Counted from the stretch's first letter, positions 7,148-29,189 are shown. The stretch is 34,705 bases of DNA from Candidatus Thorarchaeota archaeon (GCA_048882485.1 JBHLRP010000032.1:1-34705); one strand, 5' to 3'. Translations and numbers: made by a program. The notes: a model not told the origin generated them from the sequence alone.

Positions 7148-7155
7148 AAAAAAAA
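7148..7155 (-). terminator. Oligo-U (T8) archaeal terminator after the permease
   Basis: A8 run on + (T8 on -) about 45 nt downstream of the permease stop. Confidence 0.5.
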
Positions 7156-7199
7156 GAAGGGGATGCCCGAGGGTTGTTAGTCCTCAGGCTATGGTGGAT

Positions 7200-8780
7200 T
7201 TACTCAGGTGATAGTGACGTGTATATTGCATCGAGGTCTATGTTCTGCTTCTGTAACTGCCGTGCAAAATACACAAACCATAACGCCGAGAATCCATATT
7301 GGACGCACATCGAGACAATCGACAGGAATGCTGCTCCTTGGAAGAATCCAATCAGTAAGAATAACGAAACTGGCAATATGATTACGCCAAGTAACGACAC
7401 CAAAGCAAATCCTGCGATCTCAGGTTGCGCTCTTATGCTCCCTTCATATAACGGCCGCCGTATGAAGGGCAATTGTAACGCAGCCATTGACTGGAATAGC
7501 ATCTCGATGCCCCACAATCCCACTAGCGAAGTGACTACGGCCAGGAAACCACTTAGCCCTGGATTTGCGTAGGCAAATGCAAACGGAGCACCAAATAGGA
7601 AGTAGTACAAGATTGCATAGGTTGGTGTATGATACTTCGAGAGTCTGCCGAAGATGGACGGCATCATTCTGTCAAGTGAAGCTTGGAAGAATCCTCTCGT
7701 GACCCATGCCATGTTTATTGGAGTAGCCGTAAGTCCAATGACTACTGGTGAAAGTAATATCCATCCAGAGATCAACGGATTTGCAGCTAACACCGCAGTG
7801 AATGTCCCTAGGCCTCCTTGGAAAACACCCGTTTGTGTCAAGTTGCCTGATGCTGCTGCCACACCATATTCACTAGAAAAGGTCCCAAAGACCCCTTGGA
7901 ATAGGCCAGCACCTGCTGTTAAGAATCCCGCAAGAATGAGCCCACCCAGAAGCTGAGTCAGCACTAGGTTCTTTGCTGGATCCGATACCTCTCCACCATA
8001 AAGCAGGATAAGATATGGCCACGTTAAACCTATGGGCCACACCGTTGCCAACAGTGTCATTTCTATGCTAAACGCCGGCGCTGCATACCCTGCAGCAGCG
8101 GCCACTGTTTGCACCTCTGAATATGCTCCTGCACCCCAAACTGCATCCCAGCGGCCTTGGACAGCAGTTGAAGGAGTACCGAGGAGCACGAAGAGTGCCA
8201 TTATCCACCCTATTGTGGAGAAAACGCCTCCCGCCATCTGTATCCTGGGTTCCATCTTGAGTAAAGGCCCTAAGTATGCAATTACCGAGAATAACGCCAT
8301 TAATAGAATTGATATAGTAACAAGTACCATCGGGCTCTGTGTGGAGAAGGTGGTCCCGAGTCCTTGCATTGCGGCATTATTCGTAACGGCACCCCACTGA
8401 GCGAATGCAGCGCCCAGGAATACAAGAAAGAGGTAGAACTCGCTTGTCTTGATGATGGGATTAGCTATTATACCACGCCAAACCGCAATTGTCCCTGCAA
8501 CTGGATTAAATCCTCTTGCAGAGATTTGGTATAAGCCTGAAGAACGAGGCATGGCCATTGACAAGAGTGTCATCATGAGGGTATACAGGAGCATGAAGAA
8601 CATACCTATTCCCCATGTCATTCCGGCATTGATGCCCGGGTACATATCCTGTAGAATACCAACAAATAGCCATTGATACGTTCCTAGACTTGCACCAATA
8701 ATTGCAAACAGAGAGGTCCATGTACCGAAATACTTGGTCAGCCCTGAGGTTGGCCGTAGAAAGAGTACTTCTTGTGACAT
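7200..8780 (-). CDS. APC-family amino acid/amine permease
   Basis: About 12 hydrophobic segments; MPRSSGLY, GGEVSDP, R.F...SLDRMMPSIF, HTP. Confidence 0.9.
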   Translation of the reverse strand: MSQEVLFLRPTSGLTKYFGTWTSLFAIIGASLGTYQWLFVGILQDMYPGINAGMTWGIGMFFMLLYTLMMTLLSMAMPRSSGLYQISARGFNPVAGTIAVWRGIIANPIIKTSEFYLFLVFLGAAFAQWGAVTNNAAMQGLGTTFSTQSPMVLVTISILLMALFSVIAYLGPLLKMEPRIQMAGGVFSTIGWIMALFVLLGTPSTAVQGRWDAVWGAGAYSEVQTVAAAAGYAAPAFSIEMTLLATVWPIGLTWPYLILLYGGEVSDPAKNLVLTQLLGGLILAGFLTAGAGLFQGVFGTFSSEYGVAAASGNLTQTGVFQGGLGTFTAVLAANPLISGWILLSPVVIGLTATPINMAWVTRGFFQASLDRMMPSIFGRLSKYHTPTYAILYYFLFGAPFAFAYANPGLSGFLAVVTSLVGLWGIEMLFQSMAALQLPFIRRPLYEGSIRAQPEIAGFALVSLLGVIILPVSLFLLIGFFQGAAFLSIVSMCVQYGFSALWFVYFARQLQKQNIDLDAIYTSLSPE

Positions 8781-8955
8781 CTAATCTCTCCCTCTATTTC
8801 TACAAACCTTCTCCGAACTTAAATCAGAGAAGATGAATCGCTTATGAAGGTGTTCCGTGTAATAAGAGTTCCCGTTTTTGTTAAATCTCTTGAATCTAGA
8901 TATTAAACTGCAGAAACACACGTTGGGAATTATAAAGCACCAGAGCAATCATGTT

Positions 8956-9654
8956 TCAGAAAGTAATCTTGACCAAGTAGTATTTTCTCCAAGGCCTCGG
9001 CTCTTTGACAACCTCAATATGATTATAGTCTAGTAGGCCAATACCGACCAGATGGTCCTCAGGCTCTTCTTTCATTTGGTGGAGTGCCCGTCGCAGTTCA
9101 TTGATCAACGATTGAACCACGGATTGCAATTCTTCAACTCGGAGTTGCTGCGCTTCGGGATTATTCTCAAAGTATTCATCTATACTCTTCGCAATCCGGG
9201 CACCTATTAGGGACCGTCCGAGAAGCCCAATTATCATTGCAGAAAAGGCGATGACCATCACATATGGAGCAATCATACTGATAACTGGAATGTTTGGTGC
9301 GATGAGTCCAACAATTAACAGGACAAACACAATAGGTATCGCAATCTGCCAGAATGCTTCTGTGTACGACTGATAACGTGCAAGACGAAGAGTATGGGGA
9401 TTTGATGTTGGGCCGCGCGCCATCCTGATTAGTCTTCTACTCAGCTTCTTCCAGTTTTGCCCAAATGTGCGTCCAAGGGTTCCTTGTTCAACCATTTTCT
9501 CCACGAAGCTGAGATTGTAGAAGATGTGGGAACGATAGGCATCAATGTGATAGATTGCTTTCCGCAGGTCATCAGTGTCAACTTCACCTGGTTGGGGTTT
9601 CTTAGCTTTCCCTTTTGTGCGCCTTCTTTCTCCACTATCAATGGACATCTTCAT
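8956..9654 (-). CDS. Hypothetical membrane protein with two central TM helices
   Basis: Long ORF with GGTG RBS; hydrophobic hairpin (AFWQIAIPIVFVLLIVGL / IAPYVMVIAFSAMIIGLL) flanked by soluble helical regions. Confidence 0.7.
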   Translation of the reverse strand: MKMSIDSGERRRTKGKAKKPQPGEVDTDDLRKAIYHIDAYRSHIFYNLSFVEKMVEQGTLGRTFGQNWKKLSRRLIRMARGPTSNPHTLRLARYQSYTEAFWQIAIPIVFVLLIVGLIAPNIPVISMIAPYVMVIAFSAMIIGLLGRSLIGARIAKSIDEYFENNPEAQQLRVEELQSVVQSLINELRRALHQMKEEPEDHLVGIGLLDYNHIEVVKEPRPWRKYYLVKITF

Positions 9655-9672
9655 TCACCCACCAAAAATGTG

Positions 9673-10623
9673 CTACGCTGTCACACTAACTGCTACCACC
9701 TCATCTCCTGGCTTCTCAGGCAGATCAATTACAAATGCATTCAACATGCCCTGCGTGTATGCGGAGCCTGGATTGACGCAGAGTGTACGACCAATGTGTT
9801 CCATACCTACTGATTCATGGATATGTCCGTGAAGACCTAGGAGAGGCTGGTATTTCTCAAAGGTTTCGCGGACGCTTTTGCTTCCAACAGGCACCATTTC
9901 AGGAGCTCCATATCGGACCTTAACCTGTTGCTTGTCATCTAGTTTTGGTGCAAGATCTATCAGTGTCCCATACGGAGGGGCATGGAAGTTGCAAACTAGA
10001 TTTTCATGTGTGCTGATTCGACCAAATTCCTTCTCCAGCTTGACCATTAGCTCTTCCTCAGGACACTCACGCGGAGTATCCCAAGGTGTTGAATTTACCC
10101 ATTCACAGGAGATCATCTGATGTCTATCGTCAAGATCAACAACTGTTTCGATAGACTGCGTAATCCGACTGCTTTTCATAATGAGCTCATCAATATCCTT
10201 TGCATCATCGTTTCCAGGACTCACTATGACCATTATTTCATTAGGAACTTTCTCCTCAATGAGATTAATCCAAAACTCCATTCGCTCAAGCATCAGCTTC
10301 TGAAAAAGGGATTTGACTTTATCTGGCGAATCTTGAAGCTCTTCTAGTTCCGACTCATTTGAGAAGAACCAATAGAAGCCGCGTTTCTCATAGATGTCCT
10401 TAGCCCTTTGAAGGTCCTTATCGGACTTGTATTTCTCCTTTCGTCCCCACGGTGATGACCACCAGACGCCTGGCTTCTCTTCAACGATAGGCACAACTGC
10501 CTTTCCGGTAAGGTCACCGCACATCATGACAATATCGCAATTGTAGGCCTCGTGGACTTTCACCATCTTGCGAAGGACTGGAACGCTTCCGTGAGCATCA
10601 CAGGAAAATAAGATGCGGGTCAA
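9673..10623 (-). CDS. Calcineurin-like metallophosphoesterase (Icc-related)
   Basis: DAHG, CGD, PGNDD, FHAPP, HGHIHE, NPGS. Start placed at TTG 10623. Confidence 0.88.
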   Translation of the reverse strand: MTRILFSCDAHGSVPVLRKMVKVHEAYNCDIVMMCGDLTGKAVVPIVEEKPGVWWSSPWGRKEKYKSDKDLQRAKDIYEKRGFYWFFSNESELEELQDSPDKVKSLFQKLMLERMEFWINLIEEKVPNEIMVIVSPGNDDAKDIDELIMKSSRITQSIETVVDLDDRHQMISCEWVNSTPWDTPRECPEEELMVKLEKEFGRISTHENLVCNFHAPPYGTLIDLAPKLDDKQQVKVRYGAPEMVPVGSKSVRETFEKYQPLLGLHGHIHESVGMEHIGRTLCVNPGSAYTQGMLNAFVIDLPEKPGDEVVAVSVTA

Positions 10624-10713
10624 TATTAAACCTCGCAAAGCCAGCGGCCGAAATAGATATTTAAACGTTACAGAATTCAAGTCAGGAATTTGTTATTCCT
10701 CGAAGTGTTGTAC

Positions 10714-11484
10714 ATGGAAGGAGAGAAAGGAAATCACCAAGTGTTTGTTGACGAAGCTCTTAGAATCATTGAGGAGGCGGACAAACAAGGAATTATTCTT
10801 AGACTCATGGGGGCAATAGCAATTCGACTTCACAGCCCAGAATATGCGTATCTGCATGAGAAAATGGGTAGGTTCATCACTGACATAGATTATGTCGCCT
10901 ATGAGAAACAGTCATCCAAAATAGAGAAGTTCTTCGAAAGCCAAAACTACTCTCGAAGATTGCTCTCGTTTAGCTTTGCGTTGGGAGGCAGAATGATTTT
11001 CATAAACAACTCTGATGGGCGACATATAGATGTTTTTCTAGATCGACTAGAGATGTGTCATAAGATAGAGTACAAGAAGAGGCTAGAGATCGATAGTCCA
11101 ACCGTTCCTCTAGCTGAATTGCTACTTCAGAAGATGCAGATTGTGAAGATTAGTGAGAAGGACATTATCGACACCACCATGCTGATTTTAGCTCACGAAA
11201 TTGGCGATACTGATGAGAACACCATCAATGCTGGCTACATAGCTGAGATACTCTCCAAGGAATGGGGATTCTATTATACAGTTACTACCAACCTGAAAAA
11301 GGTCGCATCATTGATGCGTGATTTCACTGTTCTCGATAATCAAGAAAAGGATGTTGCAAGTTCTCGAATAGAAGAGATTCTTCAGAGCATTGAGGAAAAG
11401 CCAAAAGGCAGATCTTGGAAGATGAGAGCTAGAGTTGGGACATCAAAGAAGTGGTACAAGGATGTTGACACCCCTGGGGGATGA
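10714..11484 (+). CDS. Uncharacterised Pol-beta-fold nucleotidyltransferase-like protein
   Basis: LMGAIAI (hG), TDIDY (DxD), HIDVF (third Asp), LLLQK, KDIID. Confidence 0.65.
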   Translation: MEGEKGNHQVFVDEALRIIEEADKQGIILRLMGAIAIRLHSPEYAYLHEKMGRFITDIDYVAYEKQSSKIEKFFESQNYSRRLLSFSFALGGRMIFINNSDGRHIDVFLDRLEMCHKIEYKKRLEIDSPTVPLAELLLQKMQIVKISEKDIIDTTMLILAHEIGDTDENTINAGYIAEILSKEWGFYYTVTTNLKKVASLMRDFTVLDNQEKDVASSRIEEILQSIEEKPKGRSWKMRARVGTSKKWYKDVDTPGG

Positions 11485-12064: not shown

Positions 12065-13138
12065 TTAAAAGGTAATCTGGACCTTGATAGACTGTGTCTT
12101 CTTCTTATCCAAAGCGACATCAAAAGCTTCTGATGCCTCTTCGAGTGGGAATTTATGAGTGATCAAGGACTTAGCATCGATTTTCCCTGATTCCAACAAC
12201 TCTAAGGACAGAGCGAATTCCTTTAGATGGGTCCAATATGCATATCCCCACGCGCCTGTTAGTGTGACTTCTTTGGTAATGAGGCTGAACATATTGATAG
12301 GCACTGGATTCAGGAAGATGCCAGTCGCAACAATAATGCCGCGCCTCCTAAGAATGGTGACTCCCTCATCCAAGACAGGTGCTTCTCCTCCAACTGCCTC
12401 AATGACCTTATCCACCCCCTTTCCAGAAGTTAATTCCATGATTTTCTCAACCACGTTTTCCTTCCTTGCGTTAATAGCAGCGGCTGCTCCAAGGCGTTTC
12501 GCTGCCTCAATCTGAAATTCGTGTGCGCCAGTGACAAAGACCTCTCGGGCTCCAGCTGCTAGAACACCCTGAGTTGCAAATAGACCGATGGTCCCAGAAC
12601 CCAGAATGGCCACTCTGTCTTCGTTAGATACCTTAGCGTGTTTGATGGCCCGTTCTGCAACTGCAACGCAGTCCATCATAGCCGCTTCTTCAAACGAAGT
12701 TTTCTCTGAAATCTTGAAGCACTTCTCTGCTGGGGCTACAACAAACTCAGCTAGTCCGCCAATGTAGTAAAACCCGATTAGTCCTGAATTCTCACATAGA
12801 TTATACAGGCCGGTTTTACACCAATCACACTTGCCACAGTTGACTGTGGGCTCAACAACCACTCTGTCACCAACCTCAAGGTCAGTGACACCCTCGCCTA
12901 GCTCCTGAATCTCACCTGCAAGCTCATGGCCTGGAACATAGATTCCTTCACCAATCACAGATGAGATTGGAATGAATGTCTTCTCTTTGTACAGATGCAA
13001 ATCGCTTCCACAAATTCCAGCTGCTCGCACCTTGATCAAGACCCAACCAGGTTTGAGGCCCGGAATATCAAGTTCCTCAACCCTGAGATCCCTAGGTCCG
13101 TAAAGAATCCCAGCCTTCATCTTTCCCAATTTGGCCAA
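12065..13138 (-). CDS. Zn-dependent MDR alcohol/polyol dehydrogenase
   Basis: GICGSD, GHE, CxxCxxCx7C, GSGTIG. Confidence 0.93.
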   Translation of the reverse strand: MAKLGKMKAGILYGPRDLRVEELDIPGLKPGWVLIKVRAAGICGSDLHLYKEKTFIPISSVIGEGIYVPGHELAGEIQELGEGVTDLEVGDRVVVEPTVNCGKCDWCKTGLYNLCENSGLIGFYYIGGLAEFVVAPAEKCFKISEKTSFEEAAMMDCVAVAERAIKHAKVSNEDRVAILGSGTIGLFATQGVLAAGAREVFVTGAHEFQIEAAKRLGAAAAINARKENVVEKIMELTSGKGVDKVIEAVGGEAPVLDEGVTILRRRGIIVATGIFLNPVPINMFSLITKEVTLTGAWGYAYWTHLKEFALSLELLESGKIDAKSLITHKFPLEEASEAFDVALDKKKTQSIKVQITF

Positions 13139-13272: not shown

Positions 13273-14403
13273 ATGAATTCACGAGAGAGATTCCACAAAG
13301 CTGTTAACCATGAGGAACCAGATAGGGTGCCATTCGATTATTGGACAACGTCAGCTGCGTATCGCAACTTGCGAGATCACCTAGGCATAACTGCTAAGGA
13401 GGACCAAGAATGGGGTATAATGGAAGAATGGAAAATCTCGGAGGAAATGCTGCGTAGACTCCATGTAGACTTCCGACGTGTGTATATGAATCCATCTTCA
13501 AGTTTCAAGATGAGGACCTATCCTGATGGCTCCACCGACACAGAATATGGCTTTCGCGGAAAATACATCGGTCTCTACTGGGAAGTGACCTATTTCCCAT
13601 GGGCTGAGTTCACAGAAGTGGAACAAATCGAGGAGTACCCATGGCCGGATGCAGATGATCCTTCACGAATGGAAGGCGTTGTTGAATGGGCAAAGTACCT
13701 CCATGATAATACTGACTATGCAGTGGTTGGGATGGTGGGCGGGCCATGGGGAGTCTTTGAGATATGTGAGCACTACATGCGCGGATTTGACAAGTTTTTG
13801 ATTGATTTGGGCCAACGCACAAAGCTCGCAGAAGCAATGATGGACAAAGCAATGGAGTTGGCACTCGATATGAATAGAGTCCTTTTGGATGAAGCGGGAG
13901 AGTATCTGGACATTGTACAAGTAGGTGACGACCTCGGGCATCAGGATGGTCTGATTATGAGTCCTCGGATGTACAAGAAGCTCGTAAAACCTCGGCACAA
14001 GAAAATCTATGGTGACATACACAAGAGAGCTCCTCATGTCAAAATTCTCTATCACAGCTGCGGAGCAGTAGAGCCGATGATAAATGACCTATTGGAGGTT
14101 GACGTGGATATTCTCAATCCGATTCAGCCTCTTGCAAAGGGAATGGACTCTGCTATTCTAAAAGAGAAATACGGTGACAGACTAACCTTTCATGGCGGAG
14201 TTGACCTTCAACGGGCTATGTCTGAGAGAGGCACTTCTGATGACCTCAGGAGCGAGATAGACACGCGCTTGAAAGCACTCGCACCGGGTGGAGGCTATAT
14301 TCTAGCTCCAGCCCACAACATACAGCCGGATTCTACTCCAGAGAAGATTCTTGAGATGTATGACTATGCCGAGAAGAGGGGAAGGTATCCCCTCAATTTC
14401 TAG
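13273..14403 (+). CDS. Uroporphyrinogen decarboxylase / MtaA-CmuA methyltransferase family protein
   Basis: MNSRER..A..H.EPDRVP, GDDLG, YHSCG, LNPIQ, GGVD, GGGYILAPAHNIQ. Confidence 0.88.
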   Translation: MNSRERFHKAVNHEEPDRVPFDYWTTSAAYRNLRDHLGITAKEDQEWGIMEEWKISEEMLRRLHVDFRRVYMNPSSSFKMRTYPDGSTDTEYGFRGKYIGLYWEVTYFPWAEFTEVEQIEEYPWPDADDPSRMEGVVEWAKYLHDNTDYAVVGMVGGPWGVFEICEHYMRGFDKFLIDLGQRTKLAEAMMDKAMELALDMNRVLLDEAGEYLDIVQVGDDLGHQDGLIMSPRMYKKLVKPRHKKIYGDIHKRAPHVKILYHSCGAVEPMINDLLEVDVDILNPIQPLAKGMDSAILKEKYGDRLTFHGGVDLQRAMSERGTSDDLRSEIDTRLKALAPGGGYILAPAHNIQPDSTPEKILEMYDYAEKRGRYPLNF

Positions 14404-15068
14404 GGAATAGGCCTTTCCTTGTGAAGCTCATGAGGGTCCTCCCCATCATCAAGCTTCTCTGACCACCAGTTGTCAGTATCAACTACTCCCTCAGCGTGCT
14501 TTAGGACCTCCTCAATCATGTCCTGAGGAATCACTACAACTCCGTCTCCATCCGCAAAGATAAGATCGCCCGGATTCACAATGACTCCACCGCACACTAT
14601 CTGTTGGTTTACAGATTCCACATCAAGTCGACCTCTCATAGTGCCTGGATGACGTCCTCGGGCAAATACCGTGAACCCAACCTGGTCAATATCCACAATG
14701 TCTCGTGATGTGCCATCTACCACAGCACCTTGAATGCCCCGAGGGATGCCTATCTTTGTCAACACTTGACCCCATATTGAGCAATCCTTCGCTCCTCCAG
14801 AGTCGATGACCAAAAGGTCTCCAGGCTCGGCGTCTGTCGACAAGCTCATTAGACGATCGAGTTGCTTCTCGTCATAAGGCCGCTGAGATGGCGAACGGAC
14901 CATTCTACCGGTTCGCGCAAATCCAGCCATTCTCACATTCTTTGTCAAGGGAACTATACCACTATCCATGCATACTCGACCGATGCCAACCTCATCAGCC
15001 GCATCTGAGAATGCCGCCACATAGAGCTTCATACAACGATCGATTATTGCTTGTCGTCTGTCAGTCAT
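14400..15068 (-). CDS. RraA-family / HMG-CHA aldolase-like protein
   Basis: SDA, WGQ, VVDGTSRD, GGVIVNPGDLIFADGDGVVVIP. Confidence 0.88.
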   Translation of the reverse strand: MTDRRQAIIDRCMKLYVAAFSDAADEVGIGRVCMDSGIVPLTKNVRMAGFARTGRMVRSPSQRPYDEKQLDRLMSLSTDAEPGDLLVIDSGGAKDCSIWGQVLTKIGIPRGIQGAVVDGTSRDIVDIDQVGFTVFARGRHPGTMRGRLDVESVNQQIVCGGVIVNPGDLIFADGDGVVVIPQDMIEEVLKHAEGVVDTDNWWSEKLDDGEDPHELHKERPIP

Positions 15069-15217: not shown

Positions 15218-16378
15218 ATGCTCGCGAAGAGAAATGAAATCATTGTGGCCAGCGAGATACGAAAGATGTTCAGAATGGCAATGGGTCGAGAGAATGCACT
15301 TGATATGACAGTCGGTATGCCTGATTTCGATACTCCACAGTACATCAAGGATGCCGCATATCAGGCAATTGCAGACGGGTATACCAAGTATACACACAAT
15401 GCTGGCTTGCCTGAAGTCCGCGAGGCATTCGCGGAGAAACTCAAGCGAGATAACGCTATTGACGCAGATCCTGTGACAGAGATCATATGCACTGCTGGAG
15501 GCATGGGCTCGCTTTTGCTCTCCAATCTTGTCATTGTCGATTCAGGAGATGAGGTAATCTATCCAGACCCTGGATTTGTAAGCCATGCTGCACATATCGC
15601 AATGTGCGGAGGAATAGGGGTTCCAATTCAGCTTAAGAGAGATCTTGGTTTCTCATTCAAAGCTGACGGCCTCTTGGAATTGATTACTGACAAGACCAAG
15701 CTGCTCGTTCTCAATTTCCCCAACAATCCCACTGGGGGAACCATTCCGAGAAATGAACTCAAGAGAGTAGCTGAAATCGCAATAGAGCATGATTTGTATG
15801 TCCTAGCGGATGGAGCGTATGAGAAGTTTAGATGGAACGATGAAAAGCCGCTCTTCATTGGATCGCTACCTGGAATGAAGGAGAGAACAGTCTCGCTCTT
15901 CTCGTTCTCAAAGACCTATGCAATGACAGGATGGAGAATTGGCTTCGCAACTGGTCCCGTAGAGATAATAGAGAATATGGTCAAACTTCAGGAACATGTG
16001 CTATCGATGCCTACCTCAATCTCACAAAAAGCTGCACAAGCAGCTGTTACCGGACCACAGGACTCCGTGAAGGTCATGACTGACACATTCAGAAAGCGAC
16101 GAGATATCATAACAAAGGGACTGAATGCAATTGAGGGAGTTGAATTGGCTCCGCCTGGCGGCGCGTTCTATGTCTTCCCTGATGTCAGCGCATTCGGAAT
16201 CAAGTCGTTAGACCTGGCAGTTAAGCTTGTAGAGGACACCGGTGTTGTCACAGTTCATGGTTCAGCTTTTGGTCATTATGGTGAAGGGTTCCTTCGTATC
16301 TGCTATGCCATGTCTAATGAAACGATTGAAGATGCCATCCAGAGACTTGATACATATTTGCCGAAGCTCCTTCGTTAG
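15218..16378 (+). CDS. PLP-dependent class I/II aminotransferase
   Basis: GMPDF, NNPTG, DGAY, SFSKTYAMTGWRIG, GAFY. Confidence 0.93.
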   Translation: MLAKRNEIIVASEIRKMFRMAMGRENALDMTVGMPDFDTPQYIKDAAYQAIADGYTKYTHNAGLPEVREAFAEKLKRDNAIDADPVTEIICTAGGMGSLLLSNLVIVDSGDEVIYPDPGFVSHAAHIAMCGGIGVPIQLKRDLGFSFKADGLLELITDKTKLLVLNFPNNPTGGTIPRNELKRVAEIAIEHDLYVLADGAYEKFRWNDEKPLFIGSLPGMKERTVSLFSFSKTYAMTGWRIGFATGPVEIIENMVKLQEHVLSMPTSISQKAAQAAVTGPQDSVKVMTDTFRKRRDIITKGLNAIEGVELAPPGGAFYVFPDVSAFGIKSLDLAVKLVEDTGVVTVHGSAFGHYGEGFLRICYAMSNETIEDAIQRLDTYLPKLLR

Positions 16379-16434
16379 CTCGAAATTTGGCGCTAGGGGA
16401 AGAGTAAATAGCTTTAATGCCAGTATATTTGACG

Positions 16435-18780
16435 ATGAACTCTCGGACCAGTCGCTTGCGCGACCGCATGCTAGATGCTCAGCCAACTATATCTTCAGAG
16501 AGAGCGAGGCTGTTCACAGATTATCTCAAATCGCATGAGGATGAGCCAACCAAGATTAGAATGGCAAAGGCATTTTCATTCGTCCTATATAATATGACTC
16601 TACGAATTGAGCCAGAAGAGGTCATTGTGGCAAACATGGGACCCACTCCTCGCTCCTGTCAGATCTTCCCAGAATATAGTTGGACCTGGATCTATGACGA
16701 GCTTGATCGATTCAACAAGCGACGAACTGAACGTTTTGAGATAGAAGAATCTGACAAAAAGGCACTCAGAGAGGTCTTTGAATATTGGAAAGGGAAAAGC
16801 ACAGCTGAAATCGCTCGGGAAGAAATGCCTGTGGAATCACAGCGTGCCTCTAAAGCTGGATTGTTCACTATTGGAGCGCCAGGTACTGGAATTGGTCACT
16901 TCATTCCAGACTACGAACGTGTTCTATCTGAAGGGCTTGAAGCGATGGCCAGTGAAGCTGCTAGCCTTCGGGCCAAGACAAAGGACAAGGACAAACAGGA
17001 ATTCTATGAGGCTGTTGAAATTTCAATAGCAGGAGTCATTGGGTTCGCCAATCGATATGCAGACCTAGCAGAGCAAATGGCTGCAGATACAAATGAACCA
17101 GAACGCAGGAAAGAACTTGAACAAATGGCAGAGATATGTAGAAGAGTGCCTGCCAAGCCAGCCACTTCATTTCGTGAAGCGCTACAGTCATTTTGGTTCA
17201 TTCAATTGCTAGTGCAGATGGAGTCGAATGGCCATTCTATATCAACTGGAAGATTCGACCAATACATGTATCCCTTCTACAGCAAGGATATTGCATCAGG
17301 TCTGATAAACAAGGAAACAGCTATCGAGCTCCTAGAGATGTTGTGGATAAAATTCGCCTCTGTAATCAAGCTCCGCGATGAATACTATAGCGTAGCTTTT
17401 GCAGGATTTCCTATGTTTCAGAATCTTACCATTGGCGGTCAAGATATCAATGGTAATGATACATGTAATGATTTAACAGAACTCATTCTTGAGGCCACTG
17501 GAAACACCAGGGTTACTCAGCCTACCATTTCATTCAGGTGGCATAAGGGGACACCAGAGAGATTCAAACTCAAGGTTGTTGATGTCATCTCCAAGGGACT
17601 AGGGATGCCTGGTATCTTCAATGATGGGATTATTATCCCACTGATGCAGGATAAGGGAACGGATCCCTCCGAAATCCATGATTATTCCATCCTTGGATGT
17701 GTAGAACCTATCATAGCCGGAAAGTCAGATCCAAGGCAGAATATCGGCTATGTCAATTTGCCAAAGATTCTAGAGATAACCCTTAGCAACGGAAGAGACC
17801 CCGGTGCTGGAGAAATGGTAGGTCTCTTGACTGGTGACCCGAGGGACTTCAAATCTTTTGATGAACTCTGGCAAGCTTATGAGAAACAGATTGAATACGC
17901 CATCGACCTGCTCACGAGAGCGGATAGAGTAGCGGCAGGCATTCTCTCAAGTGAAAAACCTACGCCCTTCATCTCATCACTCCTTCAGGGCTGTTTGAAA
18001 AGTGGAAAGACAATGCAGGAAGGAGGCGTGAAGTATAACTCGGGGGGTATAATGGGCACCGGCGTTGCGATTGTAGCCGACTCCCTTTCGATGTTGAGGA
18101 AATATGTCTTTGAGTCAACTGAAATCTCGATGGACGAGATGCTTCATATGCTGGAGAACGATTATGAAGGAAAAGAAGAATTCAGAATTCGTCTTGAGAA
18201 TGATCCTGACAAATACGGAAATGACATTGAACGAGTAGACTTCCTAGCTCGTGACACAGGGAAAGCCTTCTGCAATTCAATTCAGAAAAGGATGACAACG
18301 CGAAATGGTCCGTATCATGGTGCACTATTCTCAGTTTCTATGTATATACCTCAAGGCGAGGTTATTGGAGCAACTCCAGATGGCAGAAAAGCTGGAAAGA
18401 TGATTTCCGATGGCGTGTCCCCAACTCAGAATCGCGACGTTCATGGGCCAACTGCTGCTATGAACTCCGTGGCGCGACTGGATCACAGGCTTTGCTACAA
18501 TGGGACACTCTACAACATGAAGTTCACTCCGGACTACTTCGAATCCACTTCTAGCAGAAAGAAGTTCATCAGTCTAATTGACGGATACTTCGAACTTGGG
18601 GGACTGCATGTGCAGTTCAACGTCGTGGACAAAGAAATCCTAGAAGACGCGAAAGTGAATCCCCTACAACATAGGGATCTCATCGTACGTGTTGCCGGTT
18701 ACAGTGCTTACTTCATTGAACTTGACCCATTTGTTCAGGATGAGGTGATTGCACGAACGGAGTTCAGGCCTAGCGCTTAA
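16435..18780 (+). CDS. Glycyl radical enzyme, glycerol/diol-dehydratase-like (PFL2) group, substrate unknown
   Basis: Gly loop RVAGYS, Cys loop GCVEP, ESNGHSISTGRFDQY, ATPDGR, HVQFNV. Start placed at ATG 16435 (alternative 16417). Confidence 0.93.
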   Translation: MNSRTSRLRDRMLDAQPTISSERARLFTDYLKSHEDEPTKIRMAKAFSFVLYNMTLRIEPEEVIVANMGPTPRSCQIFPEYSWTWIYDELDRFNKRRTERFEIEESDKKALREVFEYWKGKSTAEIAREEMPVESQRASKAGLFTIGAPGTGIGHFIPDYERVLSEGLEAMASEAASLRAKTKDKDKQEFYEAVEISIAGVIGFANRYADLAEQMAADTNEPERRKELEQMAEICRRVPAKPATSFREALQSFWFIQLLVQMESNGHSISTGRFDQYMYPFYSKDIASGLINKETAIELLEMLWIKFASVIKLRDEYYSVAFAGFPMFQNLTIGGQDINGNDTCNDLTELILEATGNTRVTQPTISFRWHKGTPERFKLKVVDVISKGLGMPGIFNDGIIIPLMQDKGTDPSEIHDYSILGCVEPIIAGKSDPRQNIGYVNLPKILEITLSNGRDPGAGEMVGLLTGDPRDFKSFDELWQAYEKQIEYAIDLLTRADRVAAGILSSEKPTPFISSLLQGCLKSGKTMQEGGVKYNSGGIMGTGVAIVADSLSMLRKYVFESTEISMDEMLHMLENDYEGKEEFRIRLENDPDKYGNDIERVDFLARDTGKAFCNSIQKRMTTRNGPYHGALFSVSMYIPQGEVIGATPDGRKAGKMISDGVSPTQNRDVHGPTAAMNSVARLDHRLCYNGTLYNMKFTPDYFESTSSRKKFISLIDGYFELGGLHVQFNVVDKEILEDAKVNPLQHRDLIVRVAGYSAYFIELDPFVQDEVIARTEFRPSA

Positions 18781-18800
18781 GCATCATCGTACTTACGGCA

Positions 18801-18810
18801 GATTTAACTC
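18801..18810. promoter_or_regulatory. Recurring intergenic motif GATTTAACTC (copy 3)
   Basis: About 50 nt upstream of kdgK; the same 10-mer occurs at 7111 and 13221. Confidence 0.4.
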
Positions 18811-18859
18811 TCAGACCATTCCTTCTCATCTCGTTTAATCGACCAAAGAGTGTGATTCA

Positions 18860-19855
18860 ATGGGATATGATGTAGTCACCTTCGGAGAGGTCATGCTCAG
18901 ACTATCACCTCCTGACTTTATGAGATTTGAACAGACTCACAGCTTCAACGCCCATGCAGGGGGAGCTGAGATGAATGTGGCTGTGGCATGCGCCCGTCTT
19001 GAACTCAGTTCAGCCTATGTAACTAAGCTCTGTGACAACTCCATTGGCCATTTCATCCGGAATCAAGCAAGAGAGCATGGTGTGGATACATCCCATATTC
19101 TCTGGGACCCTGGCAGTCGCTGTGGTGTTTACTTTGTTGAGTTTGGAGCGGCACCTAGGACAAATCGAGTCATCTACGATAGGAAAGAGTCCGCAATAAG
19201 CAAGATCATGCCTGGAGAGGTTCCATGGAGCAAGATACTTGATGGCACAAAGCTATTCCACACCAGCGGCATCACTCCCGCATTGAGTTCCTCGTGCGCA
19301 GATGCCACTATGGAAGTTTTGAGGATAGCTAAAGAAAAGGGCTGCAAGGTTTCGTACGATGTAAACTATCGAGGCAAGCTATGGACACCAGAAGAGGCGA
19401 GAGAGTTTACTGAGCCGGCCTCAGAGTACATTGACATATTGATTACCACAGAAGAGGACACGAAGGTGGTCTATGGTATTGAGGGTAAGGAATACGAAGA
19501 CGTCGCCAAGAAACTGACTGAGAAATTCGGATTTGAAGTGGTTGTAATCACGCTTCGAGAAACTCCCACCGTTCTTACGAACAAATGGTCAGTATTCGCG
19601 TATTCGGATGGCAAAGTCTACAAAAGCCCCGTATATGATGTTGAAGTGATAGATCGACTTGGAGGAGGCGACTCATGCAGTGCAGGTTTCATCTACGGCT
19701 ATCTCATTCTGAACGATCTTCAGAAAGCTGTGGACTTTGGCTCTGCATTTTCAGCATTGAAACACTCAGTGCCGGGAGACCTGGCCTTTGTATACAAGGA
19801 AGAAGTTGAGAAGCTTATCAAAGGACGTGAACGCGGCCTCAGGATAGATAGGTAG
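18860..19855 (+). CDS. kdgK: 2-keto-3-deoxygluconate kinase (PfkB family)
   Basis: FGEVMLRLS, GGAEMNVA, YDRKESA, SGITPAL, DVNYR.KLW, DRLGGGD, ALKHSVPGD. Confidence 0.85.
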   Translation: MGYDVVTFGEVMLRLSPPDFMRFEQTHSFNAHAGGAEMNVAVACARLELSSAYVTKLCDNSIGHFIRNQAREHGVDTSHILWDPGSRCGVYFVEFGAAPRTNRVIYDRKESAISKIMPGEVPWSKILDGTKLFHTSGITPALSSSCADATMEVLRIAKEKGCKVSYDVNYRGKLWTPEEAREFTEPASEYIDILITTEEDTKVVYGIEGKEYEDVAKKLTEKFGFEVVVITLRETPTVLTNKWSVFAYSDGKVYKSPVYDVEVIDRLGGGDSCSAGFIYGYLILNDLQKAVDFGSAFSALKHSVPGDLAFVYKEEVEKLIKGRERGLRIDR

Positions 19856-19865
19856 GGTTGAAGTC

Positions 19866-20513
19866 ATGTGGGACAAAAAGAAAGCTCTGGAGTTGATACA
19901 GAAGACTGGGCTTATTCCAATAATCCGGGTCGATTCTTCCGAAACTGCAATGAAGGTCGCAGATGCATTCCTCAAGGGTGGAGTGAGAATTATTGAAGTC
20001 ACCTTTAGTGTTCCGGGGGCAACCGATGTAGTTCGACAGCTCACTGATGAACTAGGTGACAAGGTTCTGATTGGTACCGGAACGGTTCTCAACGCCAAGA
20101 TGGTTGACAATGCAGTGGCTGCAGGCAGTGAATTCATCGTAAGTCCGGGGTACTCAAGGGAGCTTATCGAAGCAACAAAAAAACACTCCAAGCCTTGCAT
20201 TCCTGGCGCAATGACACCAACAGAGATTCTTGATGCATATAATCTCGGTTCCGACGCAGTCAAGATTTTTCCATGCGGAAATCTTGGAGGAGCCAAATAC
20301 ATCAAGGCTGTAAGAGCACCGCTCCCACACATACCTCTTGTTCCTACAGGAGGTGTCAATCTAGAAACAGCTGGACCACTTTTGGAGGCAGGAGCCTTTG
20401 CATTGGGCGTAGGTAGCGCTATCACAGACAAGATGGCAATCAAGGAAGGTCGATTTGAGGTCATCACTGAGAATGTCAAGAAGTTTCTTGAAGTCGTCGG
20501 GAATTACAGATAG
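19866..20513 (+). CDS. eda: KDPG/KHG aldolase
   Basis: IEVT, GTGTV, FIVSP, PGAMTPTE, Schiff-base KIFP, PTGGV. Confidence 0.93.
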   Translation: MWDKKKALELIQKTGLIPIIRVDSSETAMKVADAFLKGGVRIIEVTFSVPGATDVVRQLTDELGDKVLIGTGTVLNAKMVDNAVAAGSEFIVSPGYSRELIEATKKHSKPCIPGAMTPTEILDAYNLGSDAVKIFPCGNLGGAKYIKAVRAPLPHIPLVPTGGVNLETAGPLLEAGAFALGVGSAITDKMAIKEGRFEVITENVKKFLEVVGNYR

Positions 20514-20587: not shown

Positions 20588-20914
20588 ATGGGTGACGATT
20601 TACTGGACCTCATGCGTGAACGAATCGCAATAGGTTTGACAAGGGAAAAGACAATAGAAGCTATTGACGGATGGGAGAGAACTGCACTCTTGATTCTGAA
20701 AGAGGGTGGCAAGTATAACTTCATCGTCAAGGATAACGACATCACAGTTCATGATGGCGAGATTCAAGACCCTGACATGACCATTCAAAGCGATGAGGAT
20801 ACAATCAGAAAGCTCTTCCTCGAGGAGATGAGTGCAGCAGGTGCTCTTCTCAAGAGGAAGCTCAAGGTTAAGGGGTCAACGGGCGACCTTATGAAGATAA
20901 GACACATTTTCTAA
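20588..20914 (+). CDS. SCP2 sterol/lipid-binding domain protein
   Basis: PDMTIQ...A..A....KLKVKG...LMKI pattern. Confidence 0.8.
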   Translation: MGDDLLDLMRERIAIGLTREKTIEAIDGWERTALLILKEGGKYNFIVKDNDITVHDGEIQDPDMTIQSDEDTIRKLFLEEMSAAGALLKRKLKVKGSTGDLMKIRHIF

Positions 20915-20941: not shown

Positions 20942-22348
20942 TTGGACCAGCTAGTCTTCAAGAAACTGGAAGAGATCGTGGGAAAGGAATATGCCTCAAG
21001 AAGGGAAGATGTTCTCTTAGCATACTCTGTGTCAGCTTCGACAAGCTATGAACCAGTCTTGCCTGGTGCGGTGGTCCGGCCAGGAACTACGCAAGAAGTT
21101 TCACAGATTTTGAAGTTGGCCAATGAAAAGGAAATTCCAGTGATTCCAAGATCAGGCGGGTCCAGTCTCCAAGGAGAAGCCTTGCCAAAAGAGGGTAGCC
21201 TTGTAGTCGAACTGCTGAGATTAGACCAAGTAACCCTATTCGAGGACTTACGTTCAGTAACAGTTGGAGCTGGTGTGACATACGGCATGCTTGACAAGTT
21301 TCTCAAGAAGCATGACCTCTGGATACCTATCTATCCAGGCTCGTCACTCTCAGCAACTGTTGCAGGAAATGTTGCGGTCAACGGAGCGGGTTTTGGGTCA
21401 GCAAGATTCGGTTGTATTGCAGAACTTGTCTTTGGATTGGAAATAGTACTACCTGATGGAAGGATAATCCAAACCGGTTCCGAGGCCAATCCTAATGCCC
21501 CAGGTCCATTTCTTCGCTACGCCTTTGGCCCGGATCTCACTGGTCTATTCATTGGCTCGCTTGGGAGCTTTGGAATCATAACGAAGGTGTCTCTAAAGAC
21601 CCATAAGCGGATGCACCACTTTGACTATAACACATACGGCTTTTACGTCGCCGACGAGGCTGTAGATTTCTTGATTGCATTAAAGCAAAATGATGTGAGC
21701 TCTGTCTGGGCAGCAATCTATGAAGGTCAGATTCTTGACTTCTTCCTTGATATGGTAGGAGAAGAATATGGAGTCCCTAAGCATGATTGGCCCAAATTCA
21801 CGGTTTCACTTGTTCTAGGTGCGATCCGAGAAGACCAGCTGCTTAGCGATGTCAAGATGGCGAGGATGCTCTGCGAAAGCTGTGGAGGCTACATAATTGG
21901 AATCCGGGAGCTACCCAAGGGTGAATGGGATAATAGAATGTTAGAACTCGCTCGCTCATCATACATCCACAGTTGGCATTGGCGTATTCTTTATCACCAT
22001 CAAACCCCGTCGAATTGGCTTAGAACTCTGGAAGAACTCTGGTCAGTAACAGAAGAATACCGCATTCTAGCCCACACAGCAGGATTTCAATCGGGCCACT
22101 CCAGCTACAATTACTATCCGCAGTTATACTATGACCCTCAAGATGAAGAGCAGGAGCAGAAGGTACGAGATGCCCACAAAGATCTAGCTCGGCGCCTGTT
22201 CAAAACGGGAGCCGTTCCATTCAAGTTGGCCCCATATTGGATAGAAGGCGTAGAAGGAATGGCGGACTATCTAGAGCTCTTGAAAATGCTAAAGAAGTCA
22301 CTCGATCCCAAGGGAATAATGAATCCTGGTGTACTAGGAGGCATCTGA
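20942..22348 (+). CDS. FAD-binding oxidoreductase (VAO/PCMH, GlcD-like), paralog of 2814-4199
   Basis: PRSGGSS, ATVAGN, GLEIVLPDG, GPDLTGLFIGSLG, LDPKGIMNPG. Confidence 0.9.
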   Translation: MDQLVFKKLEEIVGKEYASRREDVLLAYSVSASTSYEPVLPGAVVRPGTTQEVSQILKLANEKEIPVIPRSGGSSLQGEALPKEGSLVVELLRLDQVTLFEDLRSVTVGAGVTYGMLDKFLKKHDLWIPIYPGSSLSATVAGNVAVNGAGFGSARFGCIAELVFGLEIVLPDGRIIQTGSEANPNAPGPFLRYAFGPDLTGLFIGSLGSFGIITKVSLKTHKRMHHFDYNTYGFYVADEAVDFLIALKQNDVSSVWAAIYEGQILDFFLDMVGEEYGVPKHDWPKFTVSLVLGAIREDQLLSDVKMARMLCESCGGYIIGIRELPKGEWDNRMLELARSSYIHSWHWRILYHHQTPSNWLRTLEELWSVTEEYRILAHTAGFQSGHSSYNYYPQLYYDPQDEEQEQKVRDAHKDLARRLFKTGAVPFKLAPYWIEGVEGMADYLELLKMLKKSLDPKGIMNPGVLGGI

Positions 22349-22365
22349 GTGTGACCGAGGTGGAC

Positions 22366-23511
22366 ATGGATGAACTCCTAGAGAATCTGGCTCAATGCCG
22401 CAGATGCGGAATCTGCCGGAATGCTGTATACGAGGAACTCGGATTTGATGGAGTTTGCCCAGTATGGAGAAACTCGAGCGGCTTTGAAACTAGCTTCATG
22501 AGAGGAAGGATTCAGGTTGCTCAGGCCCTTCTTGATGGAAGGTTGGAGAAGACAGCAGAGAATGTTGAGTCACTCTACACCTGCATGTTATGTGGAAATT
22601 GCACTGAGATATGCGCAGCTGAGTTTGACCCGAAGCAGACTCTGGAACAAGTCCGTCAAGTTTTGAATGATGTGCCGAATGAGTCGCGCGATGAAATTGC
22701 CGAACACATTCTCAAACATCTGAATCCCTACGAAGATGATAACAGCATCAGACGAAATTGGGTAGGAGAAGTAGGGTTTGACGTCCCAACGATGGCATCA
22801 ACAATCTACTATACTGGATGTACTGCAGGCATGCGACTTCCCAATATCGCCATCTCAACTGTCAGAATATTGAATGCAGCTGCCGAGGACTTTGGTGTAT
22901 TGGAGGAGGAACCGTGCTGCGGGTCTGTAATGATAAGGACGGGAAGAGTCGAGGATGCACGGGCTAATGCTGAGCGGATAGAGAAGGCCTTTGCTGAAGC
23001 CGGTGCAGAGCGCATAATTGTGTCATGTCCTGGATGCCTAAGAACACTGAAATTGGATTTTCCTGAACGCTTTGGTATCGAACTCCCTCAGGTAATTCAT
23101 ATCGTCGAATATGCTGCTGAACTCATAAGAAATGGTGATCTGAGCTTCAGAGGACGTGGAGAGAAAAGCAGGGTTACTTACCACGATCCTTGCCATCTTG
23201 GTAGAGGGCTTGGAATCTATGATGCACCACGTGAGATTCTTTCAGCAATTCCGGGCATAGAGCCTGTGGAGTTGGAAACAAAGAGAGAGGCAGCACTATG
23301 TTGCGGCGCCGGAGGAGGAGTGCGCAAATACGATCCAAATCTCTCCAAACGAATTGGGGCGGATAGGATTCGACAGGCAATAGAAGCAGGCGCAGACATC
23401 ATTGCAACTGCATGTCCTTTCTGTGTCAACAACCTAGATGCGGGAGCAAGTCAGGAAGGAAGCTCTATTGGAGTCGCCGATATTGTAGACCTATTGGCTG
23501 AGAGTCTCTGA
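22366..23511 (+). CDS. GlcF/HdrD-like Fe-S subunit with CCG domains, paralog of 1620-2813
   Basis: CRRCGIC...CP, CMLCGNC...C, CCG, CPGC, YHDPC, CCGAGGG, CPFC. ATG 22366 follows GAGGTG. Confidence 0.9.
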   Translation: MDELLENLAQCRRCGICRNAVYEELGFDGVCPVWRNSSGFETSFMRGRIQVAQALLDGRLEKTAENVESLYTCMLCGNCTEICAAEFDPKQTLEQVRQVLNDVPNESRDEIAEHILKHLNPYEDDNSIRRNWVGEVGFDVPTMASTIYYTGCTAGMRLPNIAISTVRILNAAAEDFGVLEEEPCCGSVMIRTGRVEDARANAERIEKAFAEAGAERIIVSCPGCLRTLKLDFPERFGIELPQVIHIVEYAAELIRNGDLSFRGRGEKSRVTYHDPCHLGRGLGIYDAPREILSAIPGIEPVELETKREAALCCGAGGGVRKYDPNLSKRIGADRIRQAIEAGADIIATACPFCVNNLDAGASQEGSSIGVADIVDLLAESL

Positions 23512-28109: not shown

Positions 28110-29189
28110 TTACCAACGAAGCCGCGCAGCAACTCCTCCGAATGATTTCAGTTGCGCACCTGATTCTGTCTGAGCAGAGAATACCATCAATTCAGAGCCA
28201 TACTCACCAATCTCATTATATAGAGAATCTATGAGGTCAGTGTTATCTTCAGTGACCATTATTGTTTCAACGCGACCAGCCCTGAGAGCATCCAGCACTT
28301 CATTTTTGCCATATGCAACATTACTCTCCCCTTTCATGAGAGCTTCCATGAATCCATCCCATATCTGACGCTCAGCATAAATCTCGGTTTCTTTGAGAAG
28401 CCGGGATGCCTCTTTCATTGCTTGATAGAGTCCAGTTTCATCTATGACGCTTACTGGAATAATGGTTTCTGCAATCTTCTCTCGAATTCGATAGTCTAGG
28501 TCACCCTTCTCCAGAAATTCCTGACATCTTATTGTGTTACCGCCAAGCACAATCGCATCCACGTTGTCAATATTATCAAGTAGGAGGTCCTTCAGCATTC
28601 TACCTACATGTCGGAAGAATTCCAACATCTTTTCTTCTCTGATACGCAAATATCGCTTAGCACTCTGACCGCCTGCACGAGTCTTTCCTATGATGTAGAA
28701 GTCCTCATCGCGGACGAGTTCCATGTGCTTGCCGCGCAGATATCCAATGGTGACCTTTCCGCCCTCAATCAAAGTGATGACGACTAGGCTCTTGGGCAGG
28801 GTCATTTCTTCAAGCTCATCAGTTATAAACTCACGACCGCAGATGTAAGTGAACTGTGAGATTGGTGCAGGAGGAATGACTATATCCCTGATTTCTTCGG
28901 TTGTTCCACCTTCTTCGATAATGCCAAAGAAGAATGCCATGCCATTCTCAGGCATAGCTGTGATCATATTGAGCTCACTCAGAATTGCTGTGAGATTGTC
29001 TTGCACATTCTTTCTGTTCGCCTTGCTCTTGATGTTGTCAGCCCCAGCCAGCTCCGCTTTTACAAATCCAGTAACATCAACTAGGCTTTTTGCCGGCGGG
29101 ATGTAGAGCGTGGTGAAAGAGCTATGCCTACCTTGGAGTGCCTTGAGCTGTTGGACCTTCCTCTTGAGCTTTTGACGCTCGGCAGACAA
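28110..29189 (-). CDS. prf1: Peptide chain release factor aRF1 (eRF1 family)
   Basis: NIKS, YICGREF (YxCxxxF), GGQS, FGGVAARLRW. TTG start after GAGGTGA. Confidence 0.88.
   Translation of the reverse strand: MSAERQKLKRKVQQLKALQGRHSSFTTLYIPPAKSLVDVTGFVKAELAGADNIKSKANRKNVQDNLTAILSELNMITAMPENGMAFFFGIIEEGGTTEEIRDIVIPPAPISQFTYICGREFITDELEEMTLPKSLVVITLIEGGKVTIGYLRGKHMELVRDEDFYIIGKTRAGGQSAKRYLRIREEKMLEFFRHVGRMLKDLLLDNIDNVDAIVLGGNTIRCQEFLEKGDLDYRIREKIAETIIPVSVIDETGLYQAMKEASRLLKETEIYAERQIWDGFMEALMKGESNVAYGKNEVLDALRAGRVETIMVTEDNTDLIDSLYNEIGEYGSELMVFSAQTESGAQLKSFGGVAARLRW

Follow-up and report, generated by a model that had tools for sequence, protein, structure and literature searches.

The closest described relatives of the enzyme considered here are two bacterial glycyl radical enzymes (GREs), B12-independent glycerol dehydratase (GD) of Clostridium butyricum (DhaB1; PDB 1r8w/1r9d) and propanediol dehydratase (PD) of Roseburia inulinivorans (5i2a). 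A CXE motif on the Cys loop defines the GRE 1,2-eliminases, and in GD roles have been described for His164, the proposed proton donor, and for Glu435 (PMC13450708). Another eliminase GRE is trans-4-hydroxy-L-proline dehydratase (HypD; 6vxc); its substrate bears a carboxylate, which is hydrogen-bonded by Tyr450 (PMC7077986). YbiW and PflD of E. coli, isomerases of 1,5-anhydroglucitol-6-phosphate and 1,5-anhydromannitol-6-phosphate, turn a sugar derivative into a keto-deoxy sugar that passes to an aldolase, a route named "radical-mediated glycolysis" (PMC13450708). According to a 2026 review, the functionally known GREs of the pyruvate formate-lyase (PFL)-like group are all bacterial, archaeal clades being without validation; no GRE acting on a sugar acid is listed in that review (PMC13450708), and none was found by full-text literature searching. 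Here, we analyze the gene for an oxygen-sensitive GRE of an uncultured organism, Candidatus Thorarchaeota archaeon (GCA_048882485.1, JBHLRP010000032.1:1-34705). It lies on a contig of 34,705 nt (C32, hereafter the window) of a 3.96 Mb genome bin, 90.5% complete, between a class I aminotransferase (AT) gene and the genes for a 2-keto-3-deoxygluconate (KDG) kinase-type protein (KdgK) and a 2-keto-3-deoxy-6-phosphogluconate (KDPG) aldolase (Eda). The four genes are found on the plus strand in the order AT-GRE-KdgK-Eda, at the positions given by the first-pass annotation. The relatives of this genome are metagenome-assembled genomes named Hermodarchaeota, Thorarchaeota or Promethearchaeota.

All the motifs previously read in the GRE are present (GIGH at residue 158, ESNGHS at 269, AGFPMF at 329, GCVEP at 427, DPRQNIG at 438 and LFSVSMY at 637), and the Cys-Cys pair of PFL is absent, as had been stated, the Cys loop holding a single Cys. 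Based on the alignment with GD, Cys428 is the thiyl radical site, Glu430 the base of the CXE motif and Gly761 the glycyl radical site. The enzyme has the same length as GD (787 aa) and shares with it the GCVEP loop with the CXE glutamate, the RVAGYS loop, and equivalents of His164, His281 and Ser282 (His161, His273 and Ser274), all of them invariant in 23 orthologues. The test for the CXE motif of the eliminase class was thus passed, GCVEP being likewise invariant across the orthologues. The view that this is an uncharacterized GRE which keeps the catalytic scaffold of the diol dehydratases and has a pocket altered from that of GD is borne out by the alignment.

Only one NCBIfam GRE model was passed, the broad subfamily model TIGR01774 (747.9 bits, cut-off 678). 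The GRE fell below every equivalog cut-off, namely those of HpfG (632/1000), HypD (584/1100), HpsG (562/1000), CutC (544/1050), indoleacetate decarboxylase (448/1100) and 4-hydroxyphenylacetate decarboxylase (349/1150), and it reached 156.7 bits against a cut-off of 994 with the pyruvate formate-lyase model TIGR01255. The best solved relatives were GD (1r8w, 677.6 bits) and PD (638.8 bits), followed by an unnamed "glycyl radical protein" (9rco); PflD (506 bits) and YbiW (489 bits) were more distant. Judging from these comparisons, the protein is almost certainly an eliminase-type GRE of unassigned specificity.

Orthologues with at least 65% identity were found only in the GTDB family of the window itself (family f1), the next Asgard matches being 42% identical. 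Among 1.84 billion cluster representatives, the clade was covered by one representative (50% clustering) and a fragment; the next protein was 42-44% identical, and none of the ten nearest representatives was at an equivalog cut-off. In both FastTree and IQ-TREE phylogenies, the clade sits on a long stem (0.56-0.61 changes per site) outside the well-supported GD/PD clade. The maximum likelihood trees join it to two uncharacterized bacterial clades (SH-like 98; SH-aLRT 95), while a position as sister to GD/PD was not rejected by the approximately unbiased test (p 0.083). Under either position, the Asgard clade is placed by its sequences outside GD/PD. One outcome named earlier as speaking against a new function, clustering with a characterized GRE, was therefore not observed, as all equivalog cut-offs were missed and the clade is isolated.

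In the first of the two bacterial clades, from Synergistales and Desulfobacterium, tandem GREs are accompanied by activases, a TRAP transporter DctM and an EamA exporter. TRAP systems usually transport organic acids. In the second, from Ruminococcus, the GRE is found with an amino-acid ABC transporter, an AT, a D-2-hydroxyacid dehydrogenase and an activase. The Ruminococcus cluster may point to amino-acid-derived acids, and both contexts hint at organic-acid substrates. It should be noted that the two tandem GREs of Synergistales/Synergistaceae (L073, 7526-13388; L090, 8964-14804) are themselves uncharacterized, and that the first of each pair has Asn in place of the His164 equivalent and Arg at the GD-445 column. 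In one Ruminococcus sp. (L074, 3625-15714), the cluster also includes a short-chain dehydrogenase/reductase, an EamA transporter, a second aminotransferase and an iron-dependent alcohol dehydrogenase, and looks like an undescribed GRE pathway for an amino-acid-derived compound.

The evidence for a function in sugar-acid metabolism comes from the partner genes. The order AT-GRE-KdgK-Eda is retained in 19 of the 23 fetched loci, and the four others are contig ends or contain one pseudogene; in two loci (L030 and G349 (L095)), the contig ends inside KdgK, directly after the GRE. The GRE and KdgK occur together in 58 of the 86 genomes of the family and neither in 24, with two genomes carrying the GRE only and two KdgK only. 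Of the GRE-only genomes, G349 is the contig end already mentioned, and in G316, a bin of 66% completeness, the contig stops 19 nt past the GRE; the KdgK-only genomes are bins 67-73% complete. The linkage to kdgK and eda, whose loss had been proposed as grounds for dropping the idea, is thus conserved at the loci and in the distribution over 86 genomes. KdgK is the most conserved gene of the cluster.

Adjacent genes can be removed by one deletion, and the genomes compared are closely related, so that most can be learned from genus g2, in which GRE and KdgK are no longer neighbours. The GRE of G312 has been relocated to a different contig, and none of the three genes (GRE, KdgK, Eda) is damaged in this genome. 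In G315 (97% complete), the relocated GRE contains three in-frame stops, KdgK contains two stops, Eda has a C-terminal frameshift and the AT is intact; an activase of the type common in the family was not found in this genome. Because KdgK and Eda decay together with the GRE system in G315, the GRE can probably be placed in the KdgK/Eda pathway, and these two enzymes appear to lose their purpose once the GRE system dies.

KdgK and Eda look genuine by sequence. KdgK scored 310 against a cut-off of 440 with the NCBIfam KDG/KDGal kinase model, a match under the cut-off, and its closest solved relative is the KDG kinase of Thermotoga maritima. Eda passed TIGR01182, and among natural proteins in the PDB it matches the T. 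maritima KDPG aldolases best. A conventional dehydratase to supply these enzymes was not found. The earlier statement that the window lacks IlvD/Edd and enolase-type dehydratases holds for its scanned ORFs, and in the whole genome (90.5% complete) IlvD/Edd, UxuA, UxaA, UxaC and KduI were not found. The sole MR_MLE protein of the genome, encoded on another contig, was far under all acid-sugar dehydratase cut-offs, its nearest models being muconate cycloisomerase and Ala-Glu epimerase. IlvD/Edd was present in 6 of the 86 genomes of the family, and a UxaA-type dehydratase in one of 85, compared with 106 of 315 other Asgard genomes.

KdgK homologues also occur in other Asgard families. In family f26 (L105, G292:C70, 111-4325), a Zn-dehydrogenase, a UxaA/GarD-type dehydratase, KdgK and a dihydrodipicolinate synthase-type aldolase are encoded in this order; a conventional enzyme here takes the place of the GRE in the series dehydratase, kinase, aldolase. 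The closest KdgK-Eda pair outside the family (family f32) adjoins an HpcH class II aldolase, and in family f21 a 667-aa protein beside Eda-KdgK had no solved relative that could be found. The conventional sugar-acid dehydratases (UxaA/GarD, UxuA, IlvD/Edd, and the gluconate, mannonate and galactonate dehydratases of the enolase superfamily) would share the net reaction and the operon slot with the GRE. Their folds are unrelated to that of the GRE, they work through an enolate with the help of a metal or Fe-S cluster and not through radicals, and they are nearly absent from the family of the window.

Two further observations were made. In family f32 (L104, G397:C13:34000-53900, ~2600-10950), KdgK-Eda follows the HpcH/HpaI aldolase, and ~1.4 kb 5' of the latter lies a 2-hydroxyacyl-CoA-dehydratase-like set consisting of an HGD-D protein and two BcrAD/BadFG activator ATPases, another oxygen-sensitive ketyl-radical system beside KDG genes. 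Furthermore, a homologue of ketol-acid reductoisomerase (KARI, IlvC) is encoded at contig C12:40590-41015 (L114), although 80 of the 86 genomes of the family, this one included, lack IlvD/Edd; the branched-chain pathway is either incomplete or uses another dehydratase.

Based on the above results, we suggest that the GRE is a family-specific 1,2-eliminase that shares a catabolic route with KdgK and Eda. It would most likely be the missing dehydratase and would supply the two enzymes with a 2-keto-3-deoxy acid, KDG or a close analogue. We give this reading a probability of roughly 0.45. The evidence is most simply accounted for by conversion of an aldonate to KDG, but the substrate may also be a uronate, an anhydro-sugar acid or a different hydroxy acid. 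A precedent is provided by YbiW and PflD, whose products pass to an aldolase (PMC13450708). The first-pass annotation had proposed the step from an aldonate to a 2-keto-3-deoxy acid; the linkage of the GRE to kdgK and eda is upheld, and the proposed substrate and product are suggested by the pathway gap and the shared fate of the genes.

The mechanism is proposed by analogy with GD and PD, from which substrate, product and step order are extrapolated; abstraction of a hydrogen by a thiyl radical, formation of a ketyl and loss of the vicinal hydroxyl are expected to be common to all three enzymes. A radical-SAM activase encoded elsewhere in the genome (contig C3:158600-159463) would install the glycyl radical on Gly761, which would then generate the thiyl radical on Cys428. 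The latter would take H from the carbinol carbon (C2) of the sugar acid, and deprotonation of the C2 hydroxyl by Glu430 would give a ketyl radical. The adjacent C3 hydroxyl would depart as water with the assistance of His161, after which the alpha-keto radical would regain H from Cys428 to yield the 2-keto-3-deoxy acid (KDG or a close analogue). KdgK would phosphorylate the product, and Eda would cleave it to pyruvate and glyceraldehyde-3-phosphate. A non-phosphorylative branch through the RraA-like class II aldolase encoded next to the cluster is also possible.

Compared with the described systems, the locus combines shared and distinct traits. It differs from GD and PD in its archaeal host, in the KdgK-Eda context, in having no adjacent activase and in carrying no microcompartment or 1,3-propanediol genes. 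The substrates of YbiW and PflD are phosphorylated before the GRE step, whereas here a KDG-type kinase gene follows the GRE, and the aldolase family differs. Tyr445 aligns with the carboxylate-binding Tyr450 of HypD, a column at which GD and PD carry Phe, and this counts in favour of a sugar acid as substrate. HypD Asp278 and Thr645 correspond to His and Val in the Asgard GRE.

The substrate pocket is distinct from those of GD and PD. Relative to GD (GD numbering), the changes are N156A, Y339F, W445R, H446Q, D447N, F450Y, Y640F, S642V, I644M and N645Y, and the beta1 loop has one residue fewer. This signature is invariant across the 23 orthologues, although their overall identity is 68-96%, and is therefore under selection. 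The GD pocket set of Asn156, Tyr339, the GWHD segment, Tyr640 and Ser642, for some of which we presume the roles, is not matched, Ala, Phe, PRQN, Phe and Val being found instead. Conversely, a bacterial locus with the GD signature (L040) is unlike the Asgard GRE at every tested GD pocket column. The PD signature, taken from the R. inulinivorans enzyme and ~45 bacterial loci (N,H,H,S,Y,F,C,E,W,H,D,A,Y,V,A,N), is not matched either, with agreement at 7 of 16 columns.

The pocket was also mapped via positions with documented substrate contacts in the solved enzymes HypD (His160, Asp278, Phe340, Tyr450, Thr645), CutC (Tyr208, Asp216, Thr502, Tyr506) and IslA (Arg189, Gln193, Arg678, Val680, Phe682) (PMC7077986, PMC8473560). 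By this mapping, Ala154, Thr157, His161, His273, Ser274, Phe328, Phe331, Phe334, Gln441, probably Ile443, Tyr445, Phe638, Val640 and Met642 face inward. The idea that Arg440 binds the substrate carboxylate was downgraded, as by the strand register the residues facing inward may be Gln441, Ile443 and Tyr445 (PMC8473560).

Several points weigh against a radical dehydratase of sugar acids. The mapped pocket appears fairly hydrophobic (Ala154, Phe328, Phe331, Phe334, Phe638, Val640, Met642), which is unexpected for a polyhydroxy hexonate, and the strand register of CutC Thr502/Tyr506 and HypD Tyr450 would allow the side chains of Arg440 and Asn442 to be turned outward. A gluconolactonase (SGL family) and a GntP permease were not found, so that no gluconate supply route is visible. 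The C2-H of an aldonate is already acidic, and ordinary dehydratases suffice, with no need of radical activation; known GREs act on unactivated C-H bonds. The cluster has no activase, and the orphan activase of the genome is also present in GRE-less relatives. Finally, a single deletion can easily remove adjacent genes and the genomes are close kin, so the independent events are fewer than the genome count.

Other functions were weighed against the same evidence. The GRE may work in the KdgK/Eda pathway at another step or on another substrate, since the shared fate of the genes ties it to the pathway and not to one step. It could dehydrate a uronate at C4-C5 to a 4-deoxy-5-keto-uronate, which a dehydrogenase would convert to KDG, and a Zn-dehydrogenase does adjoin the cluster in some genomes. 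The lack of visible gluconate supply genes also fits. An anhydro-sugar acid (e.g., 3,6-anhydrogalactonate) could be opened in the manner of YbiW/PflD, since some GRE isomerases are known to act on a C-O ring adjoining a carbinol (PMC13450708), or a downstream C3 product (e.g., glycerate) could be used. We consider these variants unlikely, since uronate isomerase (UxaC) and KduI were not found, and a GRE placed downstream leaves the source of KDG unexplained. A GRE that acts on some small compound outside this pathway, such as a diol, an amino alcohol or an (R)-2-hydroxy acid formed from an amino acid, and only shares a neighbourhood or regulon with KdgK-Eda would suit the hydrophobic pocket, which is PD-like at Phe334 and Val640, and the grouping of the clade with the two bacterial clades. 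In addition, the Ruminococcus AT from the amino-acid-type GRE cluster is 39% identical to the AT of the window, and the Asgard cluster holds, besides its AT, GlcD/GlcF of the D-2-hydroxyacid dehydrogenase type. Against this speak the decay of KdgK and Eda with the GRE system in G315, the retention of all three genes when unlinked in G312, the AT kept without the GRE in four genomes, and a pocket signature that fits neither PD nor GD; such a substrate thus seems improbable to us.

The GRE might also replace dihydroxy-acid dehydratase (IlvD) by converting 2,3-dihydroxyisovalerate to 2-ketoisovalerate, from which the AT would form valine. The chemistry would be the same as with an aldonate, both the hydrophobic pocket and the neighbouring AT would suit it, and the genome has KARI and not IlvD. 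But KARI occurs in 20 of the 86 genomes of the family, three of these without the GRE, and is missing from ~43 GRE genomes, while five of the six IlvD-bearing genomes also carry the GRE. As the distribution of KARI does not follow that of the GRE, IlvD and the GRE show no complementary pattern and the tie to KdgK/Eda would be left unexplained, this proposal was rejected as highly implausible. There is even less to be said for an alkyl-/benzylsuccinate synthase or a pyruvate formate-lyase. Hermodarchaeotal and thorarchaeotal GREs were placed in the Ass/Bss group on the basis of 29-33% identity and a single Cys by Zhang et al. in 2021 (PMC8163825), one orthologue (P0039) carries the database name "benzylsuccinate synthase alpha subunit", and "formate C-acetyltransferase" is the name given to many JGI entries. 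The X-succinate synthases (BssA/AssA/MasD) do share the GRE superfamily and the single Cys of the Cys loop, but their similarity, compared at the solved alpha subunits, is far lower (TutD 294.8 bits, MasD 291.1 bits, against 677.6 bits for GD). PFL is opposed by the absence of its Cys-Cys pair and by the low TIGR01255 score. The alkyl/benzylsuccinate synthase label does not fit the clade because of the CXE eliminase motif, the closer similarity to the dehydratases and a gene context of sugar acids, involving neither hydrocarbon nor fumarate.

If the GRE is indeed the radical dehydratase of the KdgK/Eda route, a missing step of sugar-acid catabolism in Thorarchaeia would be filled, a new reaction class would be added to GRE chemistry, and the published hydrocarbon-activation assignment would be corrected, altering the described role of sediment Asgard archaea in carbon cycling. 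A broader and more tentative proposal is that no archaeal PFL-like GRE before this one could be assigned a function, and that its reaction would be new: a sugar acid would undergo radical 2,3-dehydration, or an equivalent elimination, and yield a 2-keto-3-deoxy acid. In one Asgard family, the GRE would thereby replace metal/Fe-S dehydratases at the entry of a semi-phosphorylative Entner-Doudoroff-type branch. The clade is a well-defined target, being a single isolated family with an invariant pocket and with pathway partners that could be used as a coupled assay.

Two activases above the TIGR02494 cut-off are encoded in the genome (contig C3:158600-159463 and contig C72:11071-11952), neither of them within the cluster, and they share the genome with four GREs (contigs C1, C14, C32 and C72). 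The C3 activase is an orphan that occurs in 72 of the 85 other genomes of the family, including those without the GRE clade, and it looks as if it serves several GREs. A paralogous GRE on contig C14:30312-32678 (L009:1492-3858) scored 1244.7 bits with the HypD equivalog model (cut-off 1100), and its Cys loop reads GCVT, not GCVE, and thus lacks the CXE glutamate. This glutamate is essential in HypD, where E436Q is inactive. Either the C14 paralogue is wrongly called as HypD, or this archaeal enzyme uses a variant mechanism.

As for the other neighbours, the AT resembles the Pyrococcus aromatic/aspartate type and is a generic archaeal enzyme of this class. It is retained alone, in unrelated surroundings, in four genomes without GRE, KdgK and Eda (G317, G326, G329 and G330), and it is therefore not dedicated to the pathway. 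The alternative that the GRE acts on an amino-sugar acid, which had been raised because of the AT, consequently finds little support. The RraA-like gene tracks the distribution of GRE and KdgK in the family and is absent where only the AT is kept. RraA-like proteins belong to a family of class II aldolases whose substrates are 4-hydroxy-2-oxo acids, a group that includes KDG; the protein may thus provide a non-phosphorylative 4-hydroxy-2-oxoacid aldolase branch. The Zn-dehydrogenase adjoins the cluster in some genomes only (L013, L018, L019 and L026). It weakly matches the Pfam "glucose dehydrogenase C-terminus", and this was not taken as evidence of glucose oxidation because its best solved relatives are threonine and polyol dehydrogenases.

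Table 1. Position and annotation of the GRE cluster and adjacent genes in the window.
Feature	Position	Strand	Evidence and remarks
Zn-dependent medium-chain dehydrogenase/reductase, threonine/polyol dehydrogenase-like	12065..13138	-	PDB Tdh, 180 bits
URO-D/MtaA-like methyltransferase	13273..14403	+	PF01208; adjoins RraA gene in most loci
RraA-like protein (HMG/CHA class II aldolase/oxaloacetate decarboxylase family)	14400..15068	-	Pfam PF03737; divergent
Class I AT, archaeal aromatic/aspartate AT type	15218..16378	+	Pfam Aminotran_1_2; PDB 1dju/1gd9, 313 bits
GRE, predicted eliminase type, 787 aa	16417..18780	+	Pfam PF02901, 701 bits; PF01228, 111 bits
GRE Cys loop GCVEP (residue 427)	17695..17709	+	Motif position; aligns with GD Cys433/Glu435; invariant in 23 orthologues
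GRE glycine loop RVAGY (RVAGYS at residue 758), Gly761	18688..18702	+	Aligns with GD RVAGYS; orthologue alignment
PfkB kinase, KdgK type	18860..19855	+	PfkB, 139.6 bits; PDB 2afb (T. maritima KDG kinase), 284 bits
Eda, class I KDPG/KHG aldolase	19866..20513	+	Pfam KDPG/KHG aldolase; TIGR01182, 199.6 bits (cut-off 156.05); T. maritima 1wa3, 1vlw
Small SCP2-domain protein	20588..20914	+	Pfam PF02036; syntenic in most loci
GlcD-like FAD protein, D-lactate/D-2-hydroxyacid dehydrogenase family	20942..22348	+	PF01565; best PDB match D-lactate dehydrogenase 8jdc
GlcF-like Fe-S/CCG subunit	22237..23511	+	PF02754 and 4Fe-4S dicluster domain; syntenic; overlaps GlcD call, start uncertain

Eda starts 10 nt after the end of KdgK (Table 1). 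The true start of the GRE may be Met7 (16435), as annotated orthologues begin there. A reading of in-frame TGA as selenocysteine was discarded, the single stops of several orthologues being the natural stop codon at the end of the match. In the intergenic sequences, a TATA-like box (ATTATATAAAG) is found ~30-40 nt 5' of the AT gene and a second one (CTATAAAAG), possibly a separate promoter, 5' of the SCP2 gene; the stretch from the GRE to KdgK contains no T-run. Judging from consensus sequences only, AT-GRE-KdgK-Eda may form one transcription unit, with the AT probably its first gene, and SCP2-GlcD-GlcF another.

In two genomes of genus g15 (L098, 7772-11215, and L099), a 1147-aa multi-PAS histidine kinase is encoded between the GRE and KdgK; neither this kinase nor the housekeeping genes around the relocated GRE of genus g2 gave a hint of the substrate. 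At one further locus (L097, G334:C3:532000-550000), KdgK, GlcF and URO-D are each fragmented and the GRE is intact; in this 20-contig assembly, indel errors are as likely as real decay. The window carries two separate GlcD-like/GlcF-like pairs, at 1620-4199 (-) and 20942-23511 (+). In many related loci, a second GlcD/GlcF pair, ~30% identical, is also found upstream on the opposite strand, and in some of them GlcD is duplicated in a GlcDEF-like way. In addition, a Ras-family small GTPase (32781-33380, +) and an eRF1/Pelota-like protein (28110-29189, -) are encoded in the window, and their presence fits an Asgard archaeal origin of the contig.

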